Origin: Candidatus Giovannonibacteria bacterium
GTDB lineage: Bacteria; Patescibacteriota; Minisyncoccia; UBA11713; 2-01-FULL-45-33
DNA length: 64,000 nucleotides
Assembly: GCA_016432405.1 (NCBI GenBank)
Contig: CP066687.1
Location: 586,629-650,628 of the forward strand
Reading direction: 5' to 3'
Shown here piece by piece: positions 8,297-60,636 of the stretch. The translations under genes were made by a program, and so were the position numbers. A model generated the notes under the pieces. It had not been told where the DNA came from and ran no database searches. It saw only the letters and a list, made by a program, of their open reading frames with translations. Numbering within the stretch: position 1 is the stretch's first letter; each line of letters begins with the position of its first letter.

Positions 8297-8403
8297 TCCG
8301 TACGGGTTCGCCCGGCGGTTTTTATTTACTAAAATTATGGAGCGATCGTTTTATAATTTTAGTGAACCGCACTATTTACCAACTTAGACGTCAGACGTCT
8401 AAA

Positions 8404-8432
8404 TGAGGGCGAGTCCACCCTCATTTTTTTAT
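8404..8432 (+). terminator. rho-independent terminator (atgagggcg-agtcca-ccctcat + T7)
   Basis: 7-bp perfect stem followed by a run of 7 T. Confidence 0.5.
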
Positions 8433-24338: not shown

Positions 24339-24412
24339 TGGGCCAGGATGGATTCGAACCATCGCTCCCCGTCTTATAAGGACGGTGCTTTAAACCGCTA
24401 AGCTACTGGCCC
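24339..24412 (-). tRNA. tRNA-Ile (anticodon TAT)
   Basis: Manual fold: acceptor gggccag/ctggccc, D-stem gctt/aagc, anticodon loop cuUAUaa, T-arm gatgg-ttcgaat-ccatc. Confidence 0.65.
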
Positions 24413-46020: not shown

Positions 46021-47292
46021 CTAAAGCGTGTTTAAAACTTTCTCAAAATCAGCCGTATTTTCTTCGGGGGTAATGGCGGCAAGATTGACTTTCTCGCGCC
46101 TGAAAACGTCCCTTACTACTCCCATGATATCACTTCTCCTTACTTTCTCAATTTTCGCCAAAATCTCCTGCGGCGTCATTATCTTATTATAAAAAAGTTC
46201 CTGCGAGGCCAAAAAGGTGGCAACCTCGTCAGTGGACTCAAATGCAAGTGACATGGAGCCGCGGGCGTATTCCTTGGCAAAGTTTATTTCCCGTTCCGTC
46301 ACTCCTCTTGCTTTCAGGTGCTTCAAAATACCAACTATTTTCTTAACCGTCTTTAAAAAATTCGCGTGGGCCACCCCGGCCGTAGCCAGCAAATACCCCG
46401 TGTCCGTGGCTTCGTCGGGAGAAGCGCCTACGTAATAAGCTAATCCTGCTTTTTCACGAATTTCCCTAAACAAGTAACTGGACATGTTACCGCCAAAAAT
46501 CGTTGTCAGAACCTGAAGAGCGTATCTCTTCTCGTCGTACATATCATAAGCCCGCAAAGCAAGGCGGAGGTGCGTTTGGTCAACATCTTTTTTCTTGAAT
46601 TCCACGGCGGGTTTTTTTTGGCGCTCAAAAACTTTTTCTTTGCGCAATTTTCTTGCTTGGGGCATTTTTAAAAACGCTTTTTCAACTTTTTTGAAAACCG
46701 CGTCCGGCTCCACATTGCCAGCAACGGCGATCACGGCGTTGGAAGTAATATAGTGGCTTTTTTTGTAATTAATAATATCCTCGCGCGAAATTCCTTTCAC
46801 CGTATTTGGCGTGCCAGCGATATCCCATCCCGCCGGCTGGTCGCCATAAAGCAGTTCCTCAATAAGCTCATAGGCCTGGCGCTGGGGGTTGTCTTCATAC
46901 ATTGCGATTTCCTGCAATACGACTCCCCTTTCTTTTTCAATCTCCGTTTTTTTAAAAATCGGCTCAATTAAAATATCCGAAACAATATCCAGTCCGATAT
47001 CAAAGTGTTTGGCGGACGCTTTTACGTAGTATCCAGTATATTCCTTAGAGGTAAATGCGTTTTTTTGAGCGCCGATGCGGTCAAATTCGCGGGAAATTTG
47101 ATCTGGAGTCGGCCTGCTTTTTGTGCCTTTAAAAAACAGGTGCTCCAAAAAATGCGAGATGCCGTTGATTTTTTTTGTCTCGTATTTGGAGCCCGTCCCG
47201 AAAAGCGCCCACAATGTCACCGCCTCGGTGTCCTTCATCGGCGCCACCACGCACCGCAGCCCGTTTTTGAAAGTTCTCTTCTCAAACTTCAT
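46021..47292 (-). CDS. M16 family zinc peptidase (insulinase-like)
   Basis: Inverted zinc motif HFLEHLFFKGT. Confidence 0.75.
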   Translation of the reverse strand: MKFEKRTFKNGLRCVVAPMKDTEAVTLWALFGTGSKYETKKINGISHFLEHLFFKGTKSRPTPDQISREFDRIGAQKNAFTSKEYTGYYVKASAKHFDIGLDIVSDILIEPIFKKTEIEKERGVVLQEIAMYEDNPQRQAYELIEELLYGDQPAGWDIAGTPNTVKGISREDIINYKKSHYITSNAVIAVAGNVEPDAVFKKVEKAFLKMPQARKLRKEKVFERQKKPAVEFKKKDVDQTHLRLALRAYDMYDEKRYALQVLTTIFGGNMSSYLFREIREKAGLAYYVGASPDEATDTGYLLATAGVAHANFLKTVKKIVGILKHLKARGVTEREINFAKEYARGSMSLAFESTDEVATFLASQELFYNKIMTPQEILAKIEKVRRSDIMGVVRDVFRREKVNLAAITPEENTADFEKVLNTL

Positions 47293-47321
47293 TCTTTAAA
47301 TTCTAACACAAAATTATAAAA

Positions 47322-47345
47322 ACAATAAGGGCGAGTCTCGCCCTT
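47322..47345 (-). terminator. terminator hairpin aagggcgag-tct-cgccctt (copy 1)
   Basis: Perfect 9-bp stem; T-run when read on minus strand; identical copy at 47679. Confidence 0.55.
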
Positions 47346-47427
47346 ATTTATTTCTTTCAATTATCCTTTTATCTTTTTGGGGCGCCCTCGGGAATCAGTA
47401 AAAACAAATAGGTTATTAAACCCACAA

Positions 47428-47529
47428 TCAATCCACACCGATCGCTACCCAAATCCCTTCGCTATGAAAATATGCCAATACCGCAACAAAAACGGCGGTG
47501 CCGAGCGCCCAACCCAATTTATTAAACAT
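47428..47529 (-). CDS. small hydrophobic peptide, 33 aa (MFNKLGWALGTAVFVAVLAYFHSEGIWVAIGVD)
   Basis: Perfect RBS aaggagga 4 nt before ATG; followed by terminator copy 1; not in ORF track. Confidence 0.35.
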   Translation of the reverse strand: MFNKLGWALGTAVFVAVLAYFHSEGIWVAIGVD

Positions 47530-47678
47530 TTGTCCTCCTTATCTGCACTAGCTCCACTTAAATTCTTATCTCTGTTTAAATTATAATCCCATCAAAATAC
47601 TTATCAAGCTCGGCAATTTTATGGCGTTCTTAACAAAATGTGCCGATCGGTCAAGTTTGTTAAGTTATGAAAAAACAA

Positions 47679-47702
47679 TAAGGGCGAGTCTCGCCCTTAG
47701 AA
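47679..47702 (-). terminator. terminator hairpin aagggcgag-tct-cgccctt (copy 2)
   Basis: Identical to copy at 47322, including flanking aacaataa. Confidence 0.55.
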
Positions 47703-47706
47703 TGCC

Positions 47707-47901
47707 TTAATTATCCTCTGGCGGGCTGTTTTTCGAAAGCTGAAGTTGCCTAGCCACCAATATACTAACAGCGCACAAAGCAAGAAAAATCATTGCGATT
47801 GCCCCAGGAGGACTCGCCAACGGAGCCTCTGGAGAATAAAGACATATATTAACCACGCTAACAAAAAAGACGATCGCAAGGATATAGAAAAATTTTATCA
47901 T
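47707..47901 (-). CDS. small hydrophobic membrane protein, 64 aa
   Basis: RBS ggaggg before ATG; two hydrophobic helices; followed by terminator copy 2. Confidence 0.4.
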   Translation of the reverse strand: MIKFFYILAIVFFVSVVNICLYSPEAPLASPPGAIAMIFLALCAVSILVARQLQLSKNSPPEDN

Positions 47902-47923
47902 AAACTAGCCCTCCAATCTGAAT

Positions 47924-49141
47924 CTACCTTAGCATTTCTTCAAAGTATCTGTCAAGTCCTGTGGCTGAACAGCGGATTTGTTTGCCGGCATCGCGGGCGC
48001 GGACGGTGACAGTATCATCTTCCAAGGTCTGGTAGTCAATCGTCACGCACCAGGGCGTGCCGATTTCGTCTTGGCTGTAATAACGTTTGCCGATGTTACC
48101 GCGGTCGTCCCACACAATGGGAAATGAGAAGTGAGAAGTTAGAAGTTTGAGATTTTCGTAAACTTCGCGCGCTTTTTTGACCAAGTTTTCTTTGTTGGAA
48201 ACAAGAGGAAACACAGCAACTTTTATAGGGGCGAGTTTCGGCGGGAGTGAAAGCAGAACCCGCTCTCCGTCTTCGCGGTATACCGACAAAAGCACGGCAA
48301 ACAAAGTCCTGCCCAATCCGAAAGTCGGCTCAATCACGTGCGGGATAAATTTCTCTCCCGAAACGGGGTCGGTATAGCGCAAATCAACCCCGGAGTATTC
48401 CATATGTCTCTTTAGGTCGTAATCACAGCGATACGCAAGGCCGTAAAGCTCTTTTTTGCCGAAAGGCCAGTCAAATTCAAAGTCAACTGTGCGCTTGGAA
48501 TAATGCGCCCGTTCCCCCTCCGGCACATCAAGCTCGTGGACTTTTTCTTTATCAATTCCGACCTCTTCTATCCAAGCCCGCATTTCTTTCCGCCATTCCT
48601 CAAAATATTTTTCCCATTCCGGCTCTTTCACAAAATATTCAAACTCCATCAAATCAAACTCTCGGACTCTAAAAAGAAAATCGCGCGGCGCGATTTCGTT
48701 CCTGAAGGCCTTGCCGATCTGGGCAATACCAAAGGGCAATTCGGGGCGCATGGTATCCAAAACGTTTTTAAAATTAACGAACATCCCCTGCGCGATTTCA
48801 GGCCGCAGATATGCGGCCTTCTTTTCGGGTTGAACCGCTCCAATCTCGGTTTTAAACATCAAGTTAAAACGCTGGCCTTCGCCGAGCGGGTCAGAAAATC
48901 CTTCCAAATGCCCAGAGGCCTCCCAGACACGCTCCGGCATTAAGACGCTGGAGGCAAGTCCGAACATGTCTTTGCGCGAGCTGACAAAACGTTTCCACCA
49001 GAGCTCCTTGATGTTGTGCGCTAGTTCCGCGCCCAAAGGACCCAAATCCCAAGTGCCGGCAAAGCCCCCGTAAATCTCCGACCCCGGGAAAATAAATCCC
49101 CTTCTTTTTGCAAGCGAAACTATTTTTTCCAAATCGGCCAT
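47924..49141 (-). CDS. glyQS: glycyl-tRNA synthetase (class II, GlyQS type)
   Basis: N-terminus MADLEKIVSLAKRRGFIFPGSEIYGG characteristic of dimeric GlyRS; class II motifs. Confidence 0.8.
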   Translation of the reverse strand: MADLEKIVSLAKRRGFIFPGSEIYGGFAGTWDLGPLGAELAHNIKELWWKRFVSSRKDMFGLASSVLMPERVWEASGHLEGFSDPLGEGQRFNLMFKTEIGAVQPEKKAAYLRPEIAQGMFVNFKNVLDTMRPELPFGIAQIGKAFRNEIAPRDFLFRVREFDLMEFEYFVKEPEWEKYFEEWRKEMRAWIEEVGIDKEKVHELDVPEGERAHYSKRTVDFEFDWPFGKKELYGLAYRCDYDLKRHMEYSGVDLRYTDPVSGEKFIPHVIEPTFGLGRTLFAVLLSVYREDGERVLLSLPPKLAPIKVAVFPLVSNKENLVKKAREVYENLKLLTSHFSFPIVWDDRGNIGKRYYSQDEIGTPWCVTIDYQTLEDDTVTVRARDAGKQIRCSATGLDRYFEEMLR

Positions 49142-60251: not shown

Positions 60252-60578
60252 GGGGATGACAGGCCTCGAGGAAGAGCGAAGCGCCAAGCGCTCAGGCAGA
60301 GTTTGCGAAAGCATCTCTTAAAACTGCTTTCGCGATCAATAAGTGCAAACTTATTTAACAAAGTCGTAAATGCGTTGAGACCAATGCAGCTTGCGACTTC
60401 CTACGCTTAACAAAGCATAGGCATCCGTCTCTGATTCTCGCTAGGAGGTCGCGGGTGTTATAAGCGGGACTCCCCCGCCGAGCGGGCGGGAAAAACAATC
60501 TTCGGCTGAAAAGCTGATAAGCCTGTAAACCGCCGGTTCCGACCTTTTCCGACCCGGGTTCAACTCCCGGCATCTCCA
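60252..60578 (+). ncRNA. ssrA: tmRNA (ssrA)
   Basis: 5' GGGGAUGACAGGCCUCGAGG pairs with 3' CAUCUCCA acceptor; T-arm ccggg-ttcaact-cccgg; directly follows smpB. Confidence 0.8.
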
Positions 60579-60636
60579 TTAAAAATAAAAAACATAGTAA
60601 TATAATCTTATCCAAAGACTACGGCTCAACAAACAA

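Follow-up and report, generated by a model that had tools for sequence, protein, structure and literature searches.

Small membrane-protein cassettes probably stacked by 3'-end displacement at glyS, the gene for glycyl-tRNA synthetase, in Candidatus Giovannonibacteria

Bacterial small membrane proteins such as AcrZ, KdpF and MgtS are 30-65 amino acids (aa) long, span the membrane with one or two transmembrane (TM) helices, are individually expressed, and are restricted to particular lineages and elusive in homology searches. The subject of this report is a pair of short genes, p64 and p33, on the minus strand of a 64,000-nt stretch of DNA (the window) from an uncultured groundwater bacterium of the Candidatus Giovannonibacteria, a member of the Candidate Phyla Radiation (CPR), where they occupy a variable gap between the glycyl-tRNA synthetase (GlyRS) gene, glyS, and an M16 peptidase gene. 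Their products resemble AcrZ-, KdpF- and MgtS-type proteins in size and predicted helices but differ in having a neighbourhood that suggests no partner complex. Short hydrophobic-peptide genes with a strong ribosome-binding site (RBS) and terminator, located in accessory DNA, are also found in the type I toxin-antitoxin systems (Hok/Sok, Fst/RNAII, TisB/IstR, TxpA/RatA). The locus shares these features with them; it differs in lacking a match to any toxin family, a convincing antisense promoter and a structured leader, and in that p64 has two predicted helices and a fixed position. As regards the DNA around the genes, one known arrangement is the accretion of streptococcal integrative and conjugative elements and cis-mobilizable elements (ICE/CIME), which enter a gene at its 3' end and reconstitute it in doing so. 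Direct repeats of the target 3' end flanking the insert and tandem stacking at a single site are common to these elements and to the locus described here, whereas the latter lacks an integrase and a fixed core repeat and its inserts measure only 350-500 bp.

The effector-immunity arrays of the Vibrio cholerae type VI secretion system (T6SS) provide another parallel. For these arrays a displacement model has been proposed, citing homology-facilitated illegitimate recombination (PMC5361080). In the rhs, contact-dependent inhibition (CDI) and T6SS arrays, as is proposed for the window locus, a conserved upstream gene is the homologous anchor and has its 3' end replaced, the old end and a small downstream gene are pushed along, and repetition leads to an array with fossil ends. 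The window locus differs from them in that its anchor is the essential housekeeping gene glyS and not a toxin gene, in that none of the displaced small genes is a known immunity gene and the fossils measure only 24-72 nt, and in that at least one fossil appears to have become a near-consensus promoter.

The original prediction, made from the letters of the window, had presented the two genes as a duplicated, promoter-less cassette akin to a type I toxin (Hok/Fst-like) or a bacteriocin/leader-peptide locus. The reading favoured here is that they are, probably though by no means certainly, small membrane-protein cassettes, each self-contained, which repeated displacement of the glyS 3' end has stacked. 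Both open reading frames (ORFs) were found where the prediction had put them, each with the strong RBS attributed to it. On the minus strand the order is GlyRS, p64, hairpin A, some 60 nt of DNA with a palindrome in it, the p33 promoter-like site, p33, hairpin B, M16 and an AI-2E-type permease gene. The features on which the argument turns, read in that direction, are the following.

47924-49141, minus strand: GlyRS gene, 405 aa, left anchor of the gap (ORF; Pfam tRNA-synt_2b and HGTP_anticodon)
47926-47955, minus strand: promoter-like TTGACA-18-TAAGGT in the last GlyRS codons (L-D-R ... M-L-R-stop), a putative promoter for p64 (sequence)
47909-47914, minus strand: Shine-Dalgarno sequence GGAGGG, 7 nt before the p64 ATG, inside the 22-nt GlyRS-p64 spacer (sequence)
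47707-47901, minus strand: p64 ORF, 64 aa (ORF list, hydropathy, AlphaFold2, one homolog)
47669-47699, minus strand: putative terminator A, stem TAAGGGCGAG-A-CTCGCCCTTA (47679-47699) followed by TTGTTTTTTC, with copy A of the 29-mer inside (repeat, fold)
47576-47632, minus strand: fossil of a displaced GlyRS 3' end, outer limits approximate, firm core 47595-47631 (blastn, local alignment, scan)
47580-47607, minus strand: putative sigma-70-like promoter TTGATA-16-TATAAT upstream of p33, an 11/12 match (promoter scan)
47534-47540, minus strand: Shine-Dalgarno sequence AAGGAGG, 4 nt before the p33 ATG (sequence)
47428-47529, minus strand: p33 ORF, 33 aa, hydrophobic, one likely transmembrane segment, orphan (ORF, codon score)
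47314-47348, minus strand: putative terminator B, stem AATAAGGGCGAG-A-CTCGCCCTTATT (47324-47348) followed by GTTTTTATAA, with copy B of the 29-mer inside (repeat, fold)
46021-47292, minus strand: M16 peptidase gene, 423 aa, right anchor of the gap (ORF, domain and synteny evidence)

The two hairpins contain an exact 29-mer direct repeat, AAAAACAATAAGGGCGAGTCTCGCCCTTA on the plus strand (also written AAGGGCGAGACTCGCCCTTATTGTTTTT), at 47318-47346 and 47671-47699, a spacing of 353 nt. Chance would be expected to yield no such repeat, and a third copy is absent from the 64 kb even at 3 mismatches. The predicted identity of the terminators was correct in substance; its coordinates and string were off by a few bases, and the TT at the end of the string is not common to the two copies. 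Stem lengths are 9 and 11 bp, with a 3-nt loop; the folding energies are -13.5 and -15.8 kcal/mol (z about -5 relative to shuffles), and the T-runs TTGTTTTTT and TTGTTTTTA follow on the minus strand. Hairpin A lies 8 nt after the p64 stop codon, hairpin B 80 nt after that of p33. By the criterion of stem-loop, U-tract and preceding stop codon, both look like strong Rho-independent terminators, with the GC-rich stem, short loop and T-run of ordinary ones; what is unusual is only that two adjacent units carry an identical 29-nt version. Some 10 further terminator-like hairpins in the window all differ in sequence, which speaks against the hairpin being simply the commonest terminator of the genome. 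One of them, AAATGAGGGCGAGTCCACCCTCATTT followed by a T-run at 8401-8426 on the plus strand, has the GGGCGAG core in common with the repeat and is not a copy of it.

Outside the 29-mer, unit A (p64) and unit B (p33) show no significant similarity, aligning no better than shuffles, and the peptides are as dissimilar as had been stated (alignment z=0.5); tandem duplication of one cassette was rejected on these grounds. What survives of the duplicated-cassette proposal is that a duplication event was involved: the boundaries are doubled, namely the terminator and a GlyRS 3'-end fragment. Since only the boundaries are duplicated and the genes between them are unrelated, different cassettes would have been stacked rather than one duplicated.

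The second doubled boundary is the fossil glyS end. Window positions 47595-47631 match the GlyRS 3' end of the related locus L090 at 33 of 37 nt (blastn, E=6e-8); the local alignment scores 29, against a shuffle maximum of 15, and the relic was recovered again in a systematic scan. It reads in frame, between stop codons, ERHKIAELDKYFDGIII, corresponding to the class I tail QERHKI(A/S)ELDKYF of many relatives. The live GlyRS of the window ends in QIRCSATGLDRYFEEMLR, a class II tail also found in L009, L099 and L100, so that the relic, encoding ERHKIAELDKYF, and the live end belong to different allele classes. The putative -35 box of p33, TTGATA, consists of the old Leu-Asp-Lys codons, and the -10 box, TATAAT, falls at the former Met-Leu-Lys/Arg-stop. 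Judged from this correspondence, the predicted p33 promoter is a reused fossil of the glyS 3' end. Live GlyRS ends in the clade read TTGACA-18-TAAGGT, TAAAGT or TAAGAT, and the TTGACA-18-TAAnnT layout, present in the GlyRS ends of relatives, is kept in non-coding relics. The live glyS end may likewise double as promoter for whatever comes next. The description of the units as promoter-less therefore fails for p33, where the TTGATA-16-TATAAT site (47607-47580) stands upstream; p64 would not be promoter-less either, because the glyS end ahead of it, with TTGACA-18-TAAGGT, would serve in that role.

The gap itself is a place of rapid change in an otherwise stable neighbourhood. The backbone order of a 624-aa protein, GlyRS, M16 peptidase and AI-2E permease is strongly kept in a set of about 80 Paceibacteria loci. 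Less than 100 bp separates GlyRS from the backbone gene that follows it in 41 of 75 loci; the remainder have a gap of 190-3300 bp with unrelated cargo: HicB/HicA-like, RelE-like, PIN, NUDIX, metallo-beta-lactamase-fold (MBL) and ABC proteins, small TM proteins and a reverse transcriptase. The window GlyRS is 73% identical to that of one Candidatus Giovannonibacteria metagenome-assembled genome, and its identity to other proteins of Giovannonibacteria reaches 86%. The relatives nearest to the window, with GlyRS identities of 79-86%, differ in gap content in nearly every lineage compared, as these examples illustrate.

L097 and L101: gap nearly empty
L095: ABC-F fragment
L099: Rce1-like protease and helix-turn-helix protein
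L100: 52-aa two-helix peptide (p52), antitoxin/PIN pair and ABC-F
L102: 148-aa protein
L104: 60-aa soluble protein and ABC transporter

The window gap, 631 bp long and with a GC content of 39% (47% for the whole window), is thus one state of a strain-variable, hypervariable slot. The region is base-for-base identical in six independent assemblies from one study, and the arrangement is therefore not an assembly artefact; the idea of population variants lacking one of the units was rejected on the same identity.

Fossil glyS ends recur in relatives. L090 has three cassettes, each with a GlyRS-end copy ahead and an AGGGC...GCCCT-T-run hairpin behind; two of these copies are relics, one ahead of cassette 2 and one ahead of cassette 3. 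L100 has a 72-nt relic after p52 and the PIN module and before ABC-F, and L104 has one after the 60-aa ORF and a hairpin. The systematic scan detected no relic in any other locus. Each time, the inserted block consists of a small ORF together with a new GlyRS end and a hairpin in the AGGGC...GCCCT-T5NT5 style. Between the window and L090/L121, GlyRS is 64% identical in amino acid sequence and M16 87-95%, a discordance that points to recombination or allele replacement on the glyS side. Exchange of the small genes is suggested by a comparison of L090 (1479-1511) and L104 (4713-4745), where the post-GlyRS spacer and Shine-Dalgarno sequence are near-identical, TAGCGC[CT]AGA[GC]AGAAAATCA[GA]AGGAGGAAAA[TC]AAAAATG, and the ORFs behind this leader are unrelated, one coding for a 61-aa membrane protein and the other for a 60-aa Cys-rich soluble protein; here an ORF appears to have been swapped between conserved flanks. 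These two loci also have a near-identical palindrome, CCACTATGATATATCATAGTGG, after the terminator (L104, 5006-5031; L090, about 2236-2262), the upstream ORFs being different.

The membrane character claimed for the peptides is well supported for p64 and plausible for p33. Hydropathy analysis of p64 shows two hydrophobic stretches separated by a Pro-rich loop, and the AlphaFold2 model is a helical hairpin (helices 2-22 and 31-58; predicted local distance difference test score, pLDDT, 73.5), so that p64 looks like a two-helix small membrane protein that would insert in the membrane. A word-index homology search returned the query itself only. An exhaustive HMMER scan of 1.84 billion representatives found a sole other p64-like protein, the 61-aa P0003 (E=3.6e-5), whose gene directly follows GlyRS in 8 contigs from other samples, L090 included. 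The two proteins align without gaps over 59 residues at 44% identity (z=19.9 relative to shuffles). Nucleotide identity by codon position is 0.59/0.69/0.49, and the ratio of nonsynonymous to synonymous substitutions (dN/dS) is about 0.37, with dS near saturation. On the strength of these comparisons we take p64 to be a real, fast-evolving gene restricted to a narrow clade.

The case for p33 is of another kind. Its in-frame codon score, 0.227, is gene-like and above that of 98% of shadow ORFs, the other five frames scoring far lower, and it is annotated as a gene in five assemblies. The sequence AAGGAGG occurs nine times on both strands of the window, four times before long genes and once before p33. 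A putative promoter and terminator of its own also speak for it. Neither 5.8 billion clusters nor 1.4 Mb of related loci yielded a homolog, and a word-index search with p33 and the overlapping 27-aa ORF p27 (47369-47452) returned the query sequences only. In the predicted p33 transcript the Shine-Dalgarno site is largely unpaired and folding is unexceptional (z=-1.1 relative to shuffles); on this and the lack of any Rfam match in the region, unit B as a structured non-coding RNA was rejected. Also rejected was a frameshifted two-helix gene in which p33 would continue in p27, homologous to the 45-aa ORF (p45) of L090 cassette 3: the p27-p45 and p33-p45 alignments give z=0.4 and z=-0.6, and the DNA alignment of the two units is unconvincing beyond relic and hairpin. 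On this intrinsic evidence p33 is a plausible orphan peptide gene.

Under the stacking model, p64 would be translated from its own Shine-Dalgarno sequence, on a transcript arising by read-through from glyS or from the TTGACA-18-TAAGGT site and ended by hairpin A. The one-helix peptide p33 would be made from a transcript that starts at the fossil glyS end and stops at hairpin B. The hairpins would insulate the units from each other and from M16, where transcription would restart at that gene's own -10 box. As to origin, the recipient may have carried GlyRS with a class I end, p33, a terminator and M16, and the incoming DNA, from a related strain, GlyRS with a class II end, p64 and the orthologous gap terminator. 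Homologous recombination within glyS, coupled to an illegitimate right-hand join just upstream of the resident glyS end, would have pushed the old glyS end, p33 and the resident terminator copy downstream. The identical hairpins would then be a single gap terminator, contributed by each of two strains closely related to one another and brought into tandem, which would account for their 100% identity beside unrelated genes.

Other explanations share part of this evidence. The one with the most to be said for it, which we consider quite possible though less likely than not, concerns p33 alone: the fossil promoter and the terminator might bracket a small RNA of about 250 nt, or mere noise, with the ORF incidental. 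The absence of any homolog in clusters or related loci would fit, as would the accidental origin of the promoter from a gene fragment and the fast turnover of the gap; on the other side stand the perfect AAGGAGG-N4-ATG, which is rare in the genome and mostly marks real genes, the gene-typical codon score confined to one of six frames, and an RNA with no excess structure and no Rfam match. Instead of displacement, a second alternative supposes an attachment site within the 3' end of glyS and site-specific integration there, the cassettes being decayed integrative or cis-mobilizable elements brought together by accretion and the glyS-end copies their attL and attR. Direct repeats of the target 3' end do flank the inserts, and insertion has recurred at one site in at least four lineages, with three tandem copies in L090. 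This account is nevertheless unlikely: no integrase or recombinase was seen in or near the gap in any locus looked at, the relics are diverged and vary in length from about 24 to 72 nt with no identical core in common, and they are of the other GlyRS allele class than the live end, as recombination between strains predicts. It is very improbable, too, judging from the window, that the 29-mer is just a dispersed genome repeat, be it like a repetitive extragenic palindrome (REP) or a miniature inverted-repeat transposable element (MITE) or the commonest terminator, whose two copies would be uninformative. The relaxed stem pattern AGGGCGAG-N-CTCGCCCTT occurs in 113 unrelated metagenome contigs, and is evidently easily evolved, and the clade's terminators share the AGGGC...GCCCT-T5NT5 style; but only one of the 113 matches comes from a relative, at the orthologous gap, viral contigs gave none, the exact 28-mer of the hairpin is in neither the JGI metagenome contigs nor the viral contigs, and the window, as described above, has two copies among terminators that all differ.

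A type I toxin of the Hok, Fst or TisB kind would be a membrane-damaging peptide whose translation an antisense or divergent small RNA restrains, the terminators defining short stable mRNAs. Both peptides are small and hydrophobic and have their own Shine-Dalgarno sequence and terminator, addiction modules do settle in this gap (type II toxin-antitoxin modules are found there in relatives: HicAB in L009, PIN in L100, RelE-like in L070), and antisense transcription across the 3' portion of p64 could start from a weak plus-strand site at 47558, TTAAAT-18-TATAAT (9/12). That site emerged only from a relaxed scan and matches the -35 box at 3 of 6 positions; the promoter scan of 47300-47930 gave no plus-strand site, and the search for an antisense promoter opposite the peptides thus produced nothing convincing. 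Neither p64 nor p33 nor the gap peptides of relatives matched anything in Pfam or NCBIfam at the curated cutoff or in PADLOC, which gave zero matches, and even below threshold no toxin, holin or bacteriocin family appeared, the few weak matches being to unrelated families. Moreover, the p33 transcript is not unusually structured and does not sequester its ribosome-binding site, and p64, with two helices, 64 aa and a fixed chromosomal position in two lineages, is atypical of such toxins. We regard this reading as quite unlikely, and less credible still, almost to the point of dismissal, is the notion of precursors of bacteriocins or of ribosomally synthesized and post-translationally modified peptides (RiPPs), possibly matured by the adjoining M16 peptidase. 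What recommends it is that the short peptides have an M16-family peptidase and a membrane permease for neighbours. In dozens of genomes, however, GlyRS is followed by M16 and the AI-2E permease with no peptide gene present, and because this adjacency is kept whether or not peptides are present, M16 belongs to the backbone and is no partner of the peptides. The peptides have neither a double-glycine leader nor any other that can be recognised, and they are hydrophobic over most of their length, like membrane proteins; a modification enzyme and a C39 ABC exporter are absent from the neighbourhood, and no bacteriocin or other curated family appears at cutoff. Most likely, p64 and p33 are non-toxic accessory membrane microproteins.

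Several observations weigh against the stacking model and should be set beside it. The codon-usage score of p64, 0.027, lies at the 3.5th percentile of real-gene windows, its frame being the best of six, and the orphan status of p33 means that there is no sign of selection on it. The promoters and terminators are consensus matches, the copy number of the 29-mer is that of the 64-kb window, and the AGGGC...GCCCT hairpin style may be just the look of terminators in the clade rather than a mark of common descent. The arrangement postulated for the donor (class II GlyRS end, p64, hairpin, M16) was found in no genome, and the sole p64 homolog follows a class I GlyRS end. Given the divergence between the relic and the live glyS end, and with no donor genome found, the order of events set out above is a reconstruction.

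Two further features lie within the gap.

47629-47664, no strand assigned: imperfect palindrome CTTAACAAA(CTTGACCGATCGGCAC)ATTTTGTTAAG, also given as CTTAACAAA...TTTGTTAAG (inverted repeat, -9.3 kcal/mol, z=-3.25)
47300-47310, minus strand: extended -10-like box TGTGTTAGAAT, 7 nt before the M16 ATG (conserved in the window, L090, L095 and L099)

The palindrome, which separates terminator A from the p33 promoter and has part of its length in common with the GlyRS relic, at the relic's upstream end, is possibly an operator or a junction scar. The M16 ATG lies 25 nt after hairpin B, and the AI-2E-type permease gene comes next. The TGTGTTAGAAT box stands 7-10 nt ahead of the M16 ATG in several Giovannonibacteria (L090, 2655-2675; in L095 and L099 just upstream of M16). 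From its position it is likely to be the M16 gene's own promoter, the mRNA being leaderless or nearly so. Elsewhere in the window, a few genes upstream of GlyRS at about 52-53 kb (L001 106-644, locus coordinates), an ORF of 97 aa lies with one of 82 aa that weakly matches the YoeB toxin; the two are likely to form a type II toxin-antitoxin pair. A predicted tRNA-Ile with anticodon TAT (UAU), an uncommon AUA-reading route in bacteria, is encoded at 24339-24412 on the minus strand, and a tmRNA gene with the tag peptide ANLFNKVVNALRPMQLATSYA at 60252-60581 on the plus strand.

Small membrane-protein genes, intrinsic terminators and displacement arrays are all known kinds, to which this locus adds one member; that the fossil end of an aminoacyl-tRNA-synthetase gene should serve again as a putative promoter in a CPR genome is neat and not surprising. 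A literature search on small membrane proteins of Giovannonibacteria gave no result. For annotation, both short ORFs, which gene callers treat inconsistently, are worth keeping, p64 with comparative support and p33 as a candidate only. Identical terminators behind unrelated small genes can be a recombination scar and not a toxin or bacteriocin signature. More speculatively, the last 30-70 nt or so of glyS in Giovannonibacteria might be a recurrent landing pad with a built-in promoter (L-D-K giving TTGACA, M-L-K/R-stop giving TAAnnT), where each displacement, together with the gap terminator, would turn the small ORF that has landed into a cassette; such a site would act as an array generator and possibly as a cradle of de novo genes, p33 for example. 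For the evolution of CPR genomes, the locus would offer a compact, readable case of accessory-gene build-up beside an essential gene through 3'-end displacement, a process hitherto known mainly from polymorphic-toxin loci, and it illustrates how a discarded gene end may be put to use again as a promoter.

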